Positions 410 to 9,276 of a DNA stretch of 9,319 nucleotides are shown here, one piece after another; position 1 is the first letter of the stretch, and the number at the start of each line of letters is the position of its first letter. Source of the DNA: a virus. Lineage: Duplodnaviria > Heunggongvirae > Uroviricota > Caudoviricetes. Where the stretch lies: IMG/VR virus record IMGVR_UViG_2547132488_000013; one strand, written 5' to 3'. Under the pieces are notes generated by a model that was not told the DNA's origin, ran no database searches, and saw only the letters and a list, made by a program, of their open reading frames with translations. The position numbers and the translations under genes were made by a program.

Positions 410-1057
410 CTATAGGTTGAACTGTACACCTTTTGCTACGGCAACAATTTTACACTCTGGCGTAAGCAAGGATGATTGATAGCGCGGATTAAGAGGACTT
501 AAATACACAAGTTTTCCATCAATAACTAATTTTTTTATAGTCATAGACGGTTCATTTGTAAGTGGATCCGGAACTATTACAGCGACGATACTGCCATTTT
601 TATAACTTTCTCCTGGTCTTAGGATCACTGTGGCACCAACCGGGATACTCGGCGACCCTGATGGGTTATGCATAGTGTCATCAGGCATTGAAACGGCAAA
701 ATCACCTTCCACTACATCAAAAAATGTGGTGATCCTATCGACATTTCCCATTGTTTTCTCTCCTTCTAAGATTAGGAAAGAAATCGCGTCACCCCACGAA
801 AAGTAGGGGATCTTGGTGCCTGGATTGCTCTGCACAAAAGATAGTTCAGGAGATGATACTCCATACAGGAGATAGGACTCAGTAGTTCCTAATGCTTGGG
901 CTAACTTACTTAGAGCTTTGCTGCCGGGTTCGTTTAGATCTTTCTCCCAGTACCCTATAGTAACTCCAGTCACGCCTGAAAGCTTACCCAGTTCTACTTG
1001 AGTGAGCCCCTTATCTTTTCTGAGTCTCTTAAGCCTGATGCCAAGGCTTTCCATCAT
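410..1057 (-). CDS. CI-like prophage repressor, N-terminal HTH (XRE-type) plus C-terminal LexA/S24 peptidase-like autocleavage domain
   Basis: 215-aa ORF. N-terminus LKRLRKDKGLTQVELGKLSGVTGVTIGYWE is a typical HTH. C-terminal half has an S24-like serine context (GDFAVSMPDDTM) and a downstream lysine (TIKKLVIDGKLVYL). Divergent from a cro-like gene across a 96-bp operator region. Confidence 0.85.
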   Translation of the reverse strand: MMESLGIRLKRLRKDKGLTQVELGKLSGVTGVTIGYWEKDLNEPGSKALSKLAQALGTTESYLLYGVSSPELSFVQSNPGTKIPYFSWGDAISFLILEGEKTMGNVDRITTFFDVVEGDFAVSMPDDTMHNPSGSPSIPVGATVILRPGESYKNGSIVAVIVPDPLTNEPSMTIKKLVIDGKLVYLSPLNPRYQSSLLTPECKIVAVAKGVQFNL

Positions 1058-3120: not shown

Positions 3121-3543
3121 GTGGCAAAAGTTTTTACACAGGAAGAGCGAGAAAAAATTAAAGGGCAGGTTGTTGAACTTGTACGCCAGAGTGGGCGCGA
3201 GACGTTACGGCAACTGGAAGCCAAGACAGGTGCGACAAGATATCTGATGAGCGTTCTCGCAAGAGAGCTGGTTGCCAGTGGCGATGTATACAACTCTGGT
3301 TACGGGTTATTCCCGTCTGAACAGGCTCGTAAGGACTGGCAAAACGCCCGCAAAAAACTCTCGAGAGCAAAGCTGAAGAAAACATCTGTAGTTGATCCGG
3401 ACCTTATCTGGTCGTTACCAGACGGAGAAATACGCCGCTACGACAGGCGTCAGAACATAATCTGTCGCGAGTGCCGGAAGAGTGAGGTTATGCAGCGAGT
3501 GCTGGCGTTTTATCAGGGGAAATTTCAGGAGGTGATGCTGTGA
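3121..3543 (+). CDS. Hypothetical protein (140 aa), basic, with C-terminal CxxC
   Basis: GTG start 4 nt after SD AGGAGG (3111-3116). Contains CRECRK. Stop overlaps the next ORF start (GTGA at 3540-3543). Confidence 0.6.
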   Translation: MAKVFTQEEREKIKGQVVELVRQSGRETLRQLEAKTGATRYLMSVLARELVASGDVYNSGYGLFPSEQARKDWQNARKKLSRAKLKKTSVVDPDLIWSLPDGEIRRYDRRQNIICRECRKSEVMQRVLAFYQGKFQEVML

Positions 3544-3794
3544 GCGAATCAAAATGTCAGGTTAATGGTAATCAGATAGAACCATGTGCGGCACTGGCAA
3601 AGTCCCTTGAGCATGATGCTGAATACACGACGCGAAAAGGTCTGCTGATATACAAAATCTGGAATGAGAGTTTAACTCGCGGTCCTGATTTGGTGATGTT
3701 GCGTTCCGGTGAATTTTCTAAATTACCAGTGCGGGTTTCATTTTGTCCGTTCTGTGGTGAAAGTCTGAAAACGTGGGAGAACAGAAATGAATGA
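3540..3794 (+). CDS. Hypothetical protein (84 aa) with zinc-ribbon-like cysteines
   Basis: GTG start with SD AGGAGG (3527-3532). Cysteines at C6 and C16 plus CPFCGE near the C-terminus. Overlaps the next ORF by 8 nt. Confidence 0.6.
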   Translation: MSESKCQVNGNQIEPCAALAKSLEHDAEYTTRKGLLIYKIWNESLTRGPDLVMLRSGEFSKLPVRVSFCPFCGESLKTWENRNE

Positions 3795-4092
3795 AATTAG
3801 AGAAATACCAGTAGTACGTGATGAATATGGCTACTGGACACATCCGGAGTATGAAAAGTTTTGTGATGGTAGAGAACATATTTCAACGGAAGAGTTTAAC
3901 GCCTGGATGGAGGAAAATAATCTTCAATGGACCATCATAACTATGGATGAAGATGATTTTAATCTGGACGCAGATGGTCCCGATATTGCCTCCTGGAAAC
4001 CGGAGCGCCCGGAAGGTGAAGGCTGGTTCATTGGTTCCATTCATGACACTGAAGATGGTCCTGTTTGTGTATGGCTGAGAAATAAGGCTTAA
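3787..4092 (+). CDS. Hypothetical highly acidic small protein (101 aa)
   Basis: ATG 3787 with SD GGGAGA (3775-3780). About 23 Asp/Glu versus 8 Lys/Arg counted by eye, including the run MDEDDFNLDADGPD. Confidence 0.65.
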   Translation: MNEIREIPVVRDEYGYWTHPEYEKFCDGREHISTEEFNAWMEENNLQWTIITMDEDDFNLDADGPDIASWKPERPEGEGWFIGSIHDTEDGPVCVWLRNKA

Positions 4093-4225
4093 GCATAAAG
4101 GCGATAAACCACCTGACAACAAAACACTGAAAATTTAAATCAGAAGTGATTTTTATTAAATCCTTAACCGGAGGGATTTCTGCACCCTCAGAACATCAGG
4201 AGGCCGCCCGGAAGGGCGGTAATGA

Positions 4226-4444
4226 ATGGTCACATTATTCAGAAAAAAATATCCGCGAAAGAGTAGAACAACAGAATTCCTGTTTCTCATTCTGTTTGTC
4301 GTGTTGATGATACCGATATCCCCGTTAATCCTGGTCTGGATAATCGGAAAAATAATTGAGCCAGTTATTGAATTGTATAACGACGTGGTATGGGCGTCGT
4401 TCAACACACTGCACAATAAAATTAATCCGTATAAGGAAGGTTGA
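4226..4444 (+). CDS. Small single-pass membrane protein (72 aa), AT-rich moron-like ORF
   Basis: Hydrophobic core FLFLILFVVLMIPISPLILVWIIGKII after a basic N-terminus (RKKYPRKSR). Codon usage visibly more AT-rich than neighbours. Stop is 1 nt before the next gene's ATG. SD CAGGAGG (4197-4203) is separated from the ATG by a GNRA-looped hairpin. Confidence 0.5.
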   Translation: MVTLFRKKYPRKSRTTEFLFLILFVVLMIPISPLILVWIIGKIIEPVIELYNDVVWASFNTLHNKINPYKEG

Positions 4445-4445
4445 A

Positions 4446-4733
4446 ATGGCAACTTTGCAGGAATTAATCGACCTGACGCCAGAACAGGAAAAAGCGTGGA
4501 ATCGCCTTGTGAAGGCTGTAAAGGATTTCAGAGCAGCCGGAGGAAAGTTTTATAGTGTCCTGGACACGCTGAGCGCATACAACGGCGAGCACGTTGCCAG
4601 CATTGATAACGATAAGGGCTACCACACTGCAAGCGTCTATATGCCTAGCATTGATGCGCCAGGGCTAACCAGTTGGGCTGATGATTGGCACGGCATCACG
4701 CTGAAAGATGGCGTTGAAGTGGATGAGGACTAA
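4446..4733 (+). CDS. Hypothetical protein (95 aa)
   Basis: ATG 4446 with SD AGGAAGG (4434-4440). The track ORF starting at 4356 is an upstream in-frame extension lacking an SD; 4446 is the likely true start. Confidence 0.65.
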   Translation: MATLQELIDLTPEQEKAWNRLVKAVKDFRAAGGKFYSVLDTLSAYNGEHVASIDNDKGYHTASVYMPSIDAPGLTSWADDWHGITLKDGVEVDED

Positions 4734-4736
4734 CAC

Positions 4737-5159
4737 ATGACCACTATTACCAAAGAACGCGCGGAGATTAAATCATTCATCACTGGTTTCCTGAGCGACC
4801 CGGCGCACGATAACCAATCCTCAGACAGCCTGCTTGCCAATGTGTTTCGTATCGCCCTGGCATCACTGGAAGCAGAACCAGTTGCATGGACTGATGACGA
4901 GGAACTGCGAGATGTTGAGCGAATTGGTTTAGGTTATTTATTACCTTGTCCTCCAGATAAATACGCAGACCCGCGTCGTGTAATTCCGCTGTATCGTGTG
5001 CCGCCAGCTCCTACAGTGCAGGCACAGGGCATTGAGATCGCAATAAACGAACTGGCGTCTCTGTCCCCACAGCTGGATAAACGAGCGGTGGAAACTCTTT
5101 CCATGGCTGTGGCACATCTACGCAAACTGGTTAAGAAGCAGTTGCAGGCTAAGGAATGA
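4737..5159 (+). CDS. Hypothetical protein (140 aa); N-terminal module paralogous to the next gene
   Basis: ATG 4737 with SD GAGGA (4725-4729). Shares ITKER...RIALASLEAEPVA with the downstream ORF. Confidence 0.7.
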   Translation: MTTITKERAEIKSFITGFLSDPAHDNQSSDSLLANVFRIALASLEAEPVAWTDDEELRDVERIGLGYLLPCPPDKYADPRRVIPLYRVPPAPTVQAQGIEIAINELASLSPQLDKRAVETLSMAVAHLRKLVKKQLQAKE

Positions 5160-5162
5160 CAC

Positions 5163-5957
5163 ATGAACGCTATCACCAAAGAACGTATTGAATTGTTCAT
5201 TAAAAATTCGCTTGAAAACGGGTTTACTCGTAGCGAACAAATGGAAGTGGCACGGATTGCTTTGGCATCGCTGGAAGCAGAACCGGTTGCAGTAAACGAC
5301 GACATGGCTTACGCATTCCATCACGCATTGTCAGATTCATCGCTAGGCGCTGATGAAGTAGAGGAAATTAAGGCCGGTTTGCGTGCTGCCTTTGCCAACG
5401 TCACTATCCAACCAGAGCCGGTAGTGCCGGATGAAATCGAGCCAGACGATAGCAATACGTTTGATTATGTTGATGGCTGGAACGCCTGCCGCGCCGCCAT
5501 GCTTCAGAGTCAGAGGGAAGGCAACCCTCATGTAACCCCGGCTCGCCTGCCTGGTGGTTTCACTATTGAGGATGCGAAGGAGTTACATGAAGACCTGGTA
5601 CGCAGCCACATAAGCCAGGCTTTAAGTGGCGAGAAGATGAAAAAGAAAGATCGTGATGCTGATTTGCGCTGGATTCATGGCGTTATAGTACAGGCAGCGT
5701 GGTTTGTGAAAGCTTCACTGGATGCGTTGCCTGAACCGCTGCGGGAGGAGAAGGGAGGAAGTGCCAACTGTACTGCCAGTCATGGTACAACCGACAATCC
5801 ACCAGTACCAGGCAAACAGACTGACGAATTAACCATGCTGGTTAAGCAATTGGTCAGTCAACTGAAGAAAGTGAAGCCGGACTGTAAATTGCCGGATAAG
5901 GCGATGGACTACCTGAAGCGGAACGAACTGATAAGTGCGGAGGATGTTTTGCGATGA
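5163..5957 (+). CDS. Hypothetical protein (264 aa); N-terminal module paralogous to the preceding gene
   Basis: ATG 5163 with SD AAGGA (5151-5155). N-terminus MNAITKERIELFIKNSLENGFTRSEQMEVARIALASLEAEPVA. Acidic central region. Confidence 0.75.
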   Translation: MNAITKERIELFIKNSLENGFTRSEQMEVARIALASLEAEPVAVNDDMAYAFHHALSDSSLGADEVEEIKAGLRAAFANVTIQPEPVVPDEIEPDDSNTFDYVDGWNACRAAMLQSQREGNPHVTPARLPGGFTIEDAKELHEDLVRSHISQALSGEKMKKKDRDADLRWIHGVIVQAAWFVKASLDALPEPLREEKGGSANCTASHGTTDNPPVPGKQTDELTMLVKQLVSQLKKVKPDCKLPDKAMDYLKRNELISAEDVLR

Positions 5958-6073: not shown

Positions 6074-6294
6074 GAAGGAAACAAAACAGAAACAACAATT
6101 GCCGTTACCTGTTGTTACCATGGCAAGTAAACGTATCTCAGGCGAGCGCATTGCACCGTTCTGACGCAGATAAATTAGCCATGGATAGATGGTGCTGGCA
6201 ATAAAAAATAGCGTTTTCTTATCGGTGTCGGTAAGATTGCTGCGGGTGCTTGAGGCTGTCTGCCTCGGGCATGCCACTGTAAGGCAGGCAGAGA

Positions 6295-6397
6295 AAAGCC
6301 CCAGTTAACATTACGCGTCCGGCAAGACGCTTAACATTAATCTGAGGCTCCCTATGCATGACAACATCAGGTTAGCCTCTTACGTGCCGAAAGGCAA
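6295..6397 (-). ncRNA. sok: Candidate Sok-like antisense RNA locus (promoter plus expected transcript over the mok start)
   Basis: Minus strand reads TTGCCT (plus 6392-6397), 17-nt spacer, TAACCT (plus 6369-6374), predicting a leftward transcript from about 6362 across the mok start (6354-6356). This is where Sok maps in hok/sok loci. Transcript 3' end not identified. Confidence 0.3.
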
Positions 6398-6566
6398 GGA
6401 GAAGCAGGCTATGAAGCAGCAAAAGGCGATGTTAATCGCCCTGATCGTCATCTGTTTAACCGTCATAGTGACGGCACTGGTAACGAGGAAAGACCTCTGC
6501 GAGGTACGAATCCGAACCGGCCAGACGGAGGTCGCTGTCTTCACAGCTTACGAACCTGAGGAGTAA
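6354..6566 (+). CDS. mok: Mok-like in-frame N-terminal extension of hok (overlapping regulatory reading frame)
   Basis: ATG 6354 opens a 70-codon frame whose last 51 codons are hok. This matches the layout I recall for chromosomal mok/hok pairs such as mokC/hokC. Confidence 0.4.
   Translation: MHDNIRLASYVPKGKEKQAMKQQKAMLIALIVICLTVIVTALVTRKDLCEVRIRTGQTEVAVFTAYEPEE
6411..6566 (+). CDS. hok: Hok/Gef-family type I toxin (small membrane-depolarising peptide)
   Basis: 51 aa: MKQQKAMLIALIVICLTVIVTALVTRKDLCEVRIRTGQTEVAVFTAYEPEE. N-terminal TM helix and conserved RKDLCEVRIRTGQTEVAVFTAYE signature of Hok/Gef/RelF. SD AAGGAG (6396-6401) 9 nt upstream. Confidence 0.85.
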   Translation: MKQQKAMLIALIVICLTVIVTALVTRKDLCEVRIRTGQTEVAVFTAYEPEE

Positions 6567-6654: not shown

Positions 6655-6781
6655 TCGTCGCATTATGAGGTTGTAATTTTAGCTACCATTAGACTATCCT
6701 AAGGATCTCAAACAGATCTATTTTGCATCAAATTTGGTGCATGGCTTTGCCAATAATCGGAAAACAAAAGGACTCATTAGT

Positions 6782-6961
6782 ATGAGCTGCCCACTCAAAA
6801 AACACACGCGGTTGAGTATTCCGCCTCGCGATAAAAGCGTTGTGGCAGTCCCTCGCCCAGCGATTGATGAAAACTGCGCACATCGTGAACAAGTGAAAAA
6901 TGCTTTTGATTTCGGTTTTTCTCGTTATGAGAAAGCCATGGAAGACCTCTCTAAAGTGTAA
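6782..6961 (+). CDS. Small ORF upstream of the Doc-family toxin; putative cognate antitoxin
   Basis: ATG 6782 with SD AAGGA (6768-6772), 59 aa. Ends 20 nt before the Doc-like gene, the usual antitoxin-first layout. The track start at 6734 is a TTG with no SD. No recognisable Phd signature; role inferred from position only. Confidence 0.5.
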   Translation: MSCPLKKHTRLSIPPRDKSVVAVPRPAIDENCAHREQVKNAFDFGFSRYEKAMEDLSKV

Positions 6962-6981: not shown

Positions 6982-7467
6982 ATGGCTGAGATTGTTGAAG
7001 GTGTGCATTACCTTACGGTTGATGATCTTGTTGAAATCAATCGTTCCCTAATTGAATTACAGACGCCAGATGAGCCCGTTGGTGTTCTGAGTCCAGATAA
7101 CTTAAGTTCTTCTCAGGCCCGTCCCAGCATGGTTCGATGGTATGAACAGATCAATGACATGTTTGTACTGGCATCGGTATTGATTGAAAGTCTGATTCAG
7201 AATCATCCGTTTGCTAATGCGAACAAACGAACAGCTATGATGGCTGGTTACGTCTTCTTGTTGTTGAATGGCTATGAGTTAACAGCACCAGGCGATGAAA
7301 TCGTGGAAATGGCAGAGGGACTGGCCTGCAAAACCTATACTCGAGAAGATCTCGAGAACTGGTTGTGTTATTGGTCTCGTGCGTATGACAGCCGGGAATT
7401 ATGTAAAACAGGCGCAACTATTGTTTTGTATGAAACTATCAAGCTTAAAATAGAACAGCAAAACTAA
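6982..7467 (+). CDS. doc: Doc (death-on-curing) / Fic-fold family toxin
   Basis: 161-aa ORF containing HPFANANKRTAMMAGYVFLLLNGYEL, which matches the Doc-type catalytic motif (compare P1 Doc HIFNDANKRTA). Confidence 0.8.
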   Translation: MAEIVEGVHYLTVDDLVEINRSLIELQTPDEPVGVLSPDNLSSSQARPSMVRWYEQINDMFVLASVLIESLIQNHPFANANKRTAMMAGYVFLLLNGYELTAPGDEIVEMAEGLACKTYTREDLENWLCYWSRAYDSRELCKTGATIVLYETIKLKIEQQN

Positions 7468-7854: not shown

Positions 7855-8904
7855 GTGCGGGTATTAGTTCGACCTGCCCTGGTACCGGAACTCGGACTGG
7901 TGGTGCTAAAGCCGGGCCGCGAATCCATGCAGGTATTTCATAGCCCTCGAGTGCTGGTGGAGCCGGAACCGAAAAGTATGCGCGGTCTGCCGTCCGGAGC
8001 CGTCCCTGCCGTTCGCCAGCCGCTGGCGGAAGATAAATCATTACTGCCATTTTTCAGCAATGAGCGGGTAATTCGTGCTGCCGGTGGCACTGGTGCACTG
8101 TCTGACTGGCTCCTGCGTCATGTTAAATCCTGCCAGTGGCCTCATGGTGACTATCATCACAGTGAAATCGTCATACATCGTTACGGTACCGGCGCTATTG
8201 TGTTGTGCTGGCACTGCGACAACCAGCTGCGTGACCAGACCTCAGAATCACTTGAGCAACTTGCTCAACAAAACCTGGCAGCATGGATGATTGACGTCAT
8301 CCGTCACGCAATAAGCGGTGCGCAGGAGCGTGAATTATCGCTGGCTGAATTATCCTGGTGGGCTGTCTGCAATCAGGTGGCGGACGCACTACCGGAGGTA
8401 GTATTACGTCGTTCTCTGGGGTTACGTGCGGAAAAAATTCGCTCGGTGTACCGCGAAAGCGACATCATACCGGGAGAGCAGACAGCCACCAGCATACTGA
8501 AGCAGCGCACAAAAAATATTGTGCTATCGCCTCACGTCCACCAGCAACAGAACTCACCGCAGGAAAAGGCGGTGGTCAGCATTGCCGTTGATCCGGAGTC
8601 TCCGGAATCTTTCATGAAGCGACCTAAACGTCGCCGTTGGATAAATGAGAAATACACACGCTGGGTGAAGACACAGCCGTGTGCGTGTTGTGGTAAGCCA
8701 GCCGACGATCCCCATCACCTGATTGGTCATGGTCAGGGCGGAATGGGAACAAAATCCCACGATATTTTCACGCTACCGCTGTGTCGGGAGCATCACAACG
8801 AACTTCATGCGGATCCGCTGGCGTTCGAAGAAAAGCATGGTTCTCAGGTTGATTTAATTTTTCGTTTTCTTGATCACGCCTTTGCAACCGGTGTGCTTGG
8901 GTAA
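7855..8904 (+). CDS. YdfU-like prophage protein (DUF968-type) with C-terminal Cys/His-rich putative metal-binding nuclease-like motif
   Basis: 349-aa ORF, GTG start 4 nt after SD GGAGG (7846-7850). C-terminus CACCGKPADDPHHLIGHGQGGMGTKSHDIFTLPLCREHHNELH. Length and position (between a rem-like gene and rusA) fit Qin-type YdfU. Confidence 0.75.
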   Translation: MRVLVRPALVPELGLVVLKPGRESMQVFHSPRVLVEPEPKSMRGLPSGAVPAVRQPLAEDKSLLPFFSNERVIRAAGGTGALSDWLLRHVKSCQWPHGDYHHSEIVIHRYGTGAIVLCWHCDNQLRDQTSESLEQLAQQNLAAWMIDVIRHAISGAQERELSLAELSWWAVCNQVADALPEVVLRRSLGLRAEKIRSVYRESDIIPGEQTATSILKQRTKNIVLSPHVHQQQNSPQEKAVVSIAVDPESPESFMKRPKRRRWINEKYTRWVKTQPCACCGKPADDPHHLIGHGQGGMGTKSHDIFTLPLCREHHNELHADPLAFEEKHGSQVDLIFRFLDHAFATGVLG

Positions 8905-8916
8905 AAGGGGGTATTG

Positions 8917-9276
8917 ATGTGTATAGAGTTTGTTTTGCCTTACCCGCCGACGGTGAACACCTACTGGCGTCGTCGTGGCAGCACATATTTTGTATCAAAA
9001 GCCGGTGAGCGTTATCGCCGTGATGTGGCGCTTATTGTTCGCCAGCAGCGGCTGAAATTAACCCTGTCCGGAAGGCTGGCGATAAAGATCATTGCAGAGC
9101 CGCCGGATAAGCGCCGTCGTGACCTGGACAATATTCTGAAAGCACCACTGGATGCGCTGACGCATGCCGGACTTCTCATAGACGACGAGCAGTTTGATGA
9201 AATCAATATTGTGCGCGGTCAGCGCGTTCCTGGGGGGCGGCTGGGCGTGAAGATTTACAAAATTGAGAGTGAGTGA
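8917..9276 (+). CDS. rusA: RusA-family Holliday junction resolvase
   Basis: 119 aa from ATG 8917 (the track's 8914 is an in-frame TTG), SD GGGGG (8907-8911). Contains the RusA acidic catalytic signature RRRDLDN...LDAL...IDDEQ. Confidence 0.85.
   Translation: MCIEFVLPYPPTVNTYWRRRGSTYFVSKAGERYRRDVALIVRQQRLKLTLSGRLAIKIIAEPPDKRRRDLDNILKAPLDALTHAGLLIDDEQFDEINIVRGQRVPGGRLGVKIYKIESE

Follow-up and report, generated by a model that had tools for sequence, protein, structure and literature searches.

The DNA analysed here (the window, 9,319 nucleotides (nt) of the Caudoviricetes record IMGVR_UViG_2547132488_000013 in IMG/VR) comes from a Rac/Qin-like lambdoid prophage, of which it represents the immunity and early-right region. 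Its rightward operon includes a gene of the DUF4014 family, placed 3' of an untranslated gap whose upstream neighbour is the open reading frame (ORF) 3787-4092, and our subject is the region that precedes the start codon of this gene. A Shine-Dalgarno (SD) sequence is followed directly by a hairpin, termed HP2, then by a short A/U-rich spacer and the ATG (Table 1). The positions that the preliminary description gave for SD, hairpin and ATG agree exactly with the window sequence. The 5' arm of HP2 occupies 4204-4209, the loop 4210-4213 and the 3' arm 4214-4219; the loop is GGAA in the window and GAAA in most relatives, and G4203 and U4220 provide an optional seventh pair. From the end of the SD at 4203 to the ATG at 4226 the distance is 22 nt, which exceeds the functional range of about 13 nt.

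The ORF downstream of the hairpin is a genuine gene and a full-length member of its family. The product matches the Pfam DUF4014 profile with an E value of 3.7e-25 (88.6 bits against a cutoff of 23.2), residues 1-71 aligning with profile positions 1-71 of 72, and it matches PHROG phrog_1832 with an E value of 1.7e-44; nothing sets it apart from either family. Of 104 distinct homologous sequences, 103 have the plus-strand ORF intact. RefSeq (E. coli) has the same start, and alleles that lack the hairpin, described below, begin at the same codon position. The preliminary description had named a minus-strand ORF as the alternative that might prove to be the real gene. That ORF is not conserved: it has no Pfam match, and stops interrupt it in 39 of the 104 sequences. 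Its third codon positions coincide with those of the plus frame, and because of this shared wobble register the antisense frame is open in the window and the variability of codon positions is uninformative as to strand.

Table 1. Features of the DUF4014 leader and gene, and other features of the window
Feature	Position	Strand	Basis or remarks
Untranslated spacer, 133 nt	4093-4225	+	Other prophages share blocks starting near 4125, 4155 or 4195
Hairpin HP1, GAGGG 4171-4175 / CCCTC 4185-4189, 9-nt loop, -7.2 kcal/mol	4170-4189	+	Folds; weakly supported
Shine-Dalgarno CAGGAGG, core GGAGG 4199-4203	4197-4203	+	Abuts hairpin HP2 directly
Hairpin HP2, CCGCCC/GGGCGG, 6 G-C pairs, GNRA tetraloop	4204-4219	+	Sequence, folds, conservation
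Spacer UAAUGA, 6 nt, A/U-rich, two in-frame stop codons, SD-free	4220-4225	+	Sequence
DUF4014 (PF13198, phrog_1832) gene, 72 codons	4226-4444	+	Pfam, PHROG, RefSeq, conservation
SD AAGGAAGG for next ORF; 4433-4440 inside last DUF4014 codons (AAG GAA GGT)	4433-4448	+	Sequence
Antisense ORF, 98 codons; shadow ORF, rejected as gene	4156-4452	-	No Pfam match; stops
S24/HTH repressor	410-1057	-	ORF and Pfam scan
P22_Cro-like protein	1154-1381	+
YdaT-like protein	1378-1803	+
ORF, 321 aa	2115-3080	+	No Pfam match
DUF977	3121-3543	+
Small-ORF run	3540-5957	+
hok/sok	6244-6566	+
Fic/Doc	6982-7467	+
DUF968	7855-8904	+
RusA	8914-9276	+

HP2 is predicted to be very stable. Its RNAfold energy is -12.4 kcal/mol, or -14.4 kcal/mol with the G.U pair included, and it is present in all minimum free energy and centroid folds computed. 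The window has one stem of six pairs, all G/C, that is closed by a 4-nt loop, whereas 300 dinucleotide shuffles give an expectation of 0.03. For the SD itself, the duplex with the 3' end of 16S rRNA has a predicted energy of -10.3 kcal/mol.

We gathered 153 DUF4014 loci by protein similarity, and since they were retrieved in this way the set is unbiased for leader type. The SD-hairpin cassette is present at 95 of them. The other 58 have AAAGGAGAGTGAT(A/G)TG, that is, a canonical SD, AAGGAG, placed 6 nt from the same start position; in these hairpin-less alleles, of which L0067 of phage 933W (L002, 2206-2713) is an example, the TGA stop of the upstream gene abuts the start, and GTG is a frequent start codon. 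The 22-nt gap of the hairpin-bearing alleles, less the 16 nt of the hairpin, leaves 6 nt, equal to the spacing of the canonical alleles. The preliminary description had held that the SD was too distant for standard initiation unless the hairpin brought it to the start, and both this residual spacing and the conservation of the unit support such bridging. The canonical alleles follow at least six different upstream genes, and the canonical SD unit therefore travels with the DUF4014 gene too.

The SD-hairpin unit is not specific to DUF4014 but recurs before unrelated accessory genes. IMG/VR was scanned for the exact pattern GGAG-N-CCGCCC-GNNA-GGGCGG, and among the matches listed, which make the family tally a lower bound, the cassette stands before the ATG in no fewer than six unrelated families of ORFs. 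These are DUF4014 itself, in three subtypes (MVTLF, MTTLF/MTALF and MKHYL; 72 aa), with 6 nt between hairpin and start; an acidic protein of 60 aa that begins MRKFKIIIE (7 nt); a 66-aa protein, MRKFRK (7 nt); the MTELTK, MAELTK or VTELTK proteins of 135-277 aa (9 nt); the MQDIKE or MQEIKE proteins of 158-196 aa (9 nt); and the MGITKE or MEITKE proteins of 173-174 aa, with a spacer of 11 nt and a GGAG of their own. Spacers of 6-9 nt (UAAUGA, UAAGAA, UAGUUAA, UAAUGAAAA and UAAUAAAUA) are rich in A and U, open with a stop codon and are free of SD sequences. A generic search of about 400 related loci for other SD-hairpin-ATG architectures found this cassette alone to recur. At three loci of the L204-L283 set with the 60-aa MRKFK gene, a junction inside the cassette (...GGGGATCCCTCAGGCCCGAAAGGGCGGTAGTGAAATG) deletes GGAGG and part of the 5' arm. 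A similar string, GGAGGCCGCCCG-GNRA-GGGCGG with loops GAAA, GCGA or GCAA, lies in or at the start of an ORF of about 216-219 codons at four loci (L125, L135, L141 and L143); these belong to a different phage context of higher G+C content, and no TAA follows the string.

Variation within the cassette was followed in 194 protein-anchored instances, which represent 23 haplotypes. Nearly all retain the GGAG core. Each of the six C residues of the stem is seen as T somewhere, the G.U pair being kept, and G4203.U4220 becomes A-U in 5 haplotypes; one compensated double change from G:C to A:U (CCACCC/GGGTGG) precedes a MAELTK gene (L334). Disruptive changes of the stem number three, each a singleton, and by pair counting the paired cells amount to 97.5%. 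Nearly all copies have a GNRA loop (GAAA or GGAA), and a few have non-GNRA loops (GGCA, TAAA). Four scans of the whole of IMG/VR, each with one G of the 3' arm changed, returned no contig for G3', G2' and G6' and one for G5', an uncompensated G>A (L364). The mirror scan, with the stem C4 (the partner of G3') changed, returned 52 contigs; every change was C>T, and no fewer than four sequence backgrounds were represented. The neighbouring coding sequence shows no such preference, with 21 C>T and 20 G>A changes, so the asymmetry in the stem is not due to mutation bias. That only C>T is tolerated argues for pairing in the plus-sense RNA and against a DNA palindrome or a minus-strand RNA. These patterns indicate that HP2 is under RNA-level selection on the plus strand.

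The cassette also lies at mosaic junctions. When positions 3900-4600 were compared by blastn with all fetched loci, the left ends of the shared blocks clustered at 4195-4199 and the right ends at 4220-4229; additional left ends lay near 4155 and 4125. The common upstream context, 'U1', which the window has, pairs with 11 types of downstream ORF, and an alternative, 'U2' (...GATTAATGTCA), with four. The cassette is the sole conserved sequence at these junctions and therefore marks sites of module exchange; it may also promote the shuffling of modules. The 66-nt leader 4160-4225 occurs at 2884 places in 2295 of 5426 complete E. coli genomes (about 42%), with up to five identical elements per genome, and no annotated feature lies under it in the 10 hits listed. 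Among deposited phage genomes 13 have it, again unannotated, ArgO145 and Rac-SA53 being two of them. A leader with 98.5% identity and part of a DUF4014 gene with 93.7% identity are present in PP818812.1, entered as 'Actinobacillus phage vB_Apl-pPE4'. This is surprising for a Pasteurellaceae host and suggests an E. coli-type prophage or a mis-assigned host.

The position of the palindrome between breakpoints, the combinatorial assortment of the modules on its two sides and the occasional presence of HNH endonuclease genes close by would fit an element that acts as DNA, whether as a recombination, nuclease or cruciform site or as a short patch of homology, with no RNA function; a degenerate intrinsic terminator is a variant of this view. 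We consider this very improbable. A DNA site should suffer equally from C>T and G>A, yet 52 contigs against none were observed across a single pair, and the four G positions scanned are essentially unchanged, an asymmetry that points to plus-sense RNA. HP2 is followed by UAAUGAAUGG on the plus strand and by CCUCCUGAUG on the minus strand; neither strand has a U-tract, which excludes an intrinsic terminator, and the terminator scan did not report the hairpin. Lambdoid phages have conserved boundary or linker sequences at their module junctions and undergo relaxed homologous recombination by Red/Rad52-like recombinases. The cassette resembles such linkers in being a short conserved non-coding stretch with unrelated modules around it and breakpoints at its edges. 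It differs from them in having a recognisable candidate RNA function and in being under strand-specific selection, which would explain why it is conserved at all.

We judge it probable, with some reserve, that the start region of the DUF4014 gene is a structure-bridged, or 'split', ribosome-binding site (RBS) in the form of a portable cassette that marks module exchange. GGAGG at 4199-4203 would pair with the 3' end of 16S rRNA while the hairpin, capped by its GNRA loop, stayed folded and looped out 16 nt. The AUG at 4226 would then stand effectively about 6 nt from the SD, not 22 nt. SD, hairpin and A/U-rich spacer would together form a self-contained, portable initiation cassette, which recombination appears to have placed before many accessory genes, unrelated to one another, in the lambdoid prophages of E. 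coli. What the sequence comparisons establish are the anatomy, the gene itself, the strand-specific conservation of pairing, the regular spacing, the reuse of the cassette and the positions of the breakpoints; from these it is inferred that the hairpin enhances or permits initiation.

Split RBSs have been verified experimentally in phage T4 for gene 38, where 22 nt are reduced to 5, and gene 25, where 27 nt are reduced to 11 (Nivinskas et al. 1999; Malys and Nivinskas 2009; as reviewed in PMC3014915). Experimentally established sites of this kind are rare, and the review cites only these two (PMC3014915). The DUF4014 leader shares with them a distant SD, a stable hairpin between SD and start, a predicted effective spacing that is short (6 nt here), and conservation of the structure among close relatives. 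A check for alternative SD sequences found the spacers free of them and a weak one, AAGGG, inside the hairpin at 4212-4216 (loop plus 3' arm), 9 nt from the AUG, with a predicted anti-SD duplex of -8.4 kcal/mol. There are differences as well. The T4 cases were shown experimentally and serve one gene each, whereas the cassette is read from sequence and a single version of it stands before at least six unrelated families at mosaic junctions; its stem is all G-C with a GNRA tetraloop, and ordinary-SD alleles of the same gene coexist with it in the population. It would be a new example of a rare but known mechanism, found before a gene of a known family, and not a new kind of system. What is unusual is its portability, in that one cassette is common to unrelated genes at recombination junctions. 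To our knowledge it would be the first split-RBS element to be common to many unrelated genes.

Several points weigh against this interpretation. The role in translation is argued from spacing and conservation. If the hairpin melts, AAGGG could be used for initiation, and the hairpin would then repress. In some predicted folds the SD can pair with CCCUC at 4185-4189 or with CCACCUG at 4109-4115. Divergence is low, and for that reason the covariation test falls short of significance (the observed score was reached in 129 of 500 shuffles); with the family confined to Escherichia/Shigella-type prophages, classical covariation statistics are weak, and the case for covariation consists of one compensated pair together with the asymmetry of transitions. 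The IMG/VR pattern scans demanded that the rest of the cassette be canonical, and 42 of the 52 C>T contigs have one flanking context and may be a single lineage. Selection for the hairpin on the plus strand is, moreover, equally compatible with a role in RNA stability or in protein binding.

One rival account, that the hairpin is a translational brake or gate which sequesters AAGGG or blocks access of the 30S subunit, is in our view rather unlikely. Production of the membrane protein would then be very low, or would depend on the stem being opened by a ribosome from upstream, by a helicase or by temperature. The predicted strength of the AAGGG duplex and the stability of the hairpin accord with a brake, as do the conserved stops just past the stem, which would halt a ribosome reading through it; small transmembrane (TM) proteins are often toxic, and tight repression would be plausible on that ground. 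But a brake would not need the strong GGAGG that is kept immediately 5' of the stem, and the cassette also serves soluble acidic proteins and large proteins for which there is no reason for repression. The 6-9 nt that follow the hairpin fit the optimum of SD-AUG spacing when counted from the upstream SD. A ribosome that might open the hairpin is likewise hard to find, as the window and most copies with the U1 leader lack any ORF with a start codon that extends across it. We accordingly rejected an upstream ORF or leader peptide through the hairpin, since the frame that the conserved TAA closes has an open stretch of only 17-30 codons. Loci with the U2 context (for example L004, 1967-1996) have an ATG 6 nt before GGAG that opens a mini-ORF of only nine codons, MSGGRPKGR*; it crosses the hairpin and is closed by the conserved TAA, which lies 3 nt ahead of the main ATG, and it is lacking in the U1 context of the window.

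A second hairpin further upstream, HP1, could in principle regulate the same SD. It belongs to the U1 leader and is missing from the U2 context, and its variants are mixed: some keep wobble pairs, several recurrent ones break the pairing, and one is register-shifted (GAGUG/CACUC). The recurrent disruptive variants and the absence from U2 led us to reject HP1 as a conserved switch. CCCUC at 4185-4189 has two alternative partners, GAGGG at 4171-4175, as in HP1, or GAGG of the SD at 4200-4203. An arrangement of anti-SD and anti-anti-SD is thus possible; natural variants give mixed evidence on it.

The strand-specific conservation of pairing would fit any plus-sense RNA role, and the hairpin might instead be an element of mRNA stability, processing or insulation, for example a barrier to exonucleases or RNase E, with bridging of the SD incidental. 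In one version the fold would keep the start region from pairing with whatever neighbours recombination has placed beside it, and the highly variable flanks at the junctions would make such insulation useful. The cassette also ends untranslated gaps of about 90-135 nt in a long polycistronic transcript. We nevertheless hold this to be quite unlikely: it leaves unexplained why the downstream genes have no SD of their own, why a strong SD stands exactly at the 5' foot of the stem and why the distance from hairpin to AUG is restricted to 6-9 nt. Insulation is compatible with a split RBS and hence is only partly a rival to it. The two are joined in a speculative extension of the split-RBS reading, to which we give distinctly less credence: the 25-30 nt made up of SD, GNRA hairpin and stop-rich A/U spacer might be an insulated, plug-and-play RBS that doubles as an exchange linker of micro-homology. 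If so, the rigid fold of the cassette would make initiation independent of upstream sequence, and an unannotated RBS and exchange linker would be present in the roughly 42% of complete E. coli genomes that carry the leader.

The near-constant GNRA loop and the presence of up to five identical copies per genome, as in a regulon, also bring to mind a binding site for a protein that co-regulates the cassette genes, either by antitermination of the boxB type or as a translational operator. The boxB of lambda is GCCCU-GAAAA-AGGGC, and the GCCC-GAAA-GGGC stem-loop resembles it. HP2 is like the nut boxB elements of lambda and P22 in having a short G/C stem and a GNRA-type loop in an early phage transcript. 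Unlike boxB it has a tetraloop and not a pentaloop, is not promoter-proximal, lies between SD and AUG, and occurs many times, before accessory genes. A nut site was rejected because no GCTCTT-like boxA is visible in 4093-4203, or anywhere in 4093-4225, because of the tetraloop, and because the cro-side promoter region is about 3 kb away. The early region is of the YdaS/YdaT type, with no Pfam match to an N-type antiterminator among the 25 window ORFs scanned, and the few copies with GGCA or TAAA loops fit a protein site poorly. The data collected contain no candidate binding protein whose occurrence follows that of the cassette, and a role of this kind seems improbable. A search of Rfam 15 gave one match in the window at the gathering threshold, sok at 6244-6416, and nothing meaningful at 4050-4300 even at E values up to 10.

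If the split-RBS reading is correct, the cassette adds a further natural split SD, from temperate coliphages. It would give a concrete ground on which gene-finding programs and RBS models might go wrong about where the prophage genes that it serves start or how strongly they are expressed. It would also offer a compact natural part (SD, 16-nt hairpin and 6-9-nt spacer) for studying how the 30S subunit accommodates a folded spacer, and a defined sequence with which to track the shuffling of accessory genes in Stx and Rac-like prophages.

The preliminary description had further likened the ORF, visibly richer in A+T than its neighbours, to a horizontally acquired moron. The compositional part of this claim holds: the G+C fraction is 0.379, against a window mean of 0.479, which places the ORF at the 2.6th percentile of 219-nt windows. 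Third codon positions, however, have a G+C fraction of 0.479, equal to the window mean, so that the A+T-richness stems from amino acid composition (I, L, F, K and N) and not from foreign base composition. The gene is like morons in the sense of Juhala and Hendrix in being a small accessory gene with a patchy distribution and a G+C content below that of its neighbours. It is unlike them in that a consensus scan found no plus-strand promoter in 4093-4225 and a terminator scan found no terminator after 4444, in its average third-position composition, and in being embedded in the early-right operon, where it appears to be coupled translationally to the next gene. On these grounds we do not class it as a moron.

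The DUF4014 protein is predicted to be a small inner-membrane protein with its N-terminus inside and a single, proline-kinked TM helix. Hydropathy and the positive-inside rule gave one TM segment, as the preliminary description had supposed, with a hydrophobic core at residues ~17-41 (Kyte-Doolittle peak 2.99) behind an N-terminus of net charge +6. The AlphaFold model (mean pLDDT 80.7) has helices at residues 14-28 and 31-66, separated by a break (residues 29-30) that coincides with the invariant P30. An alignment of 18 sequences shows conserved prolines in the TM segment (P30 and P33) and an invariant motif, LHNKINPYK, at the C-terminus; the chain thus consists of a basic N-terminus, the kinked TM helix and a C-terminal helix that ends in this motif. 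Homologues number 139, and those with a named source all come from Escherichia, Shigella or Salmonella. Prophages of the Escherichia/Shigella type are the only place where the family occurs, and among about 185,000 species representatives just 2 carry it. Relatives from metagenomes share 59% identity or more and have either the same cassette or a canonical SD as leader. One copy (L358, 601-816) has a TM segment scrambled as if by a frameshift (59% identity), with cassette and C-terminus intact, and is probably a pseudogene or an assembly error.

The suggestion in the preliminary description that such a protein might be toxic to the host or act in superinfection exclusion is pure conjecture: PADLOC gave no match to a defence system, and no literature on such a role was found. 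An NCBIfam scan of the protein returned nothing meaningful. Within the literature covered, which was incomplete, we found no paper on DUF4014, on the hairpin sequence or on the odd names under which the protein is entered in databases, and none that backs the labels 'released from the phage upon host infection' or 'sugar acetyltransferase inhibitor'.

At its 3' end the gene runs closely into the next ORF, whose ATG at 4446 lies 1 nt past the TGA stop of DUF4014 (4442-4444). This arrangement, together with the SD placed within the last DUF4014 codons (Table 1), suggests that translation of the two is coupled. Because these codons double as the SD of the next ORF, the conserved KE(G/N/S) at the C-terminus may be under constraint as a nucleotide sequence as well.

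Further downstream, 6244-6566 is a complete hok/sok type I toxin-antitoxin locus, in which the sok match scores 109.6 bits in Rfam and the Hok/Gef ORF occupies 6354-6566 (Pfam E value 3e-23). The ORF of the Fic/Doc family (Pfam E value 9.8e-12) has as its 5' neighbour a 75-aa ORF, 6734-6961, that matches no family. These two ORFs may form a Phd/Doc-like toxin-antitoxin pair adjoining hok/sok.

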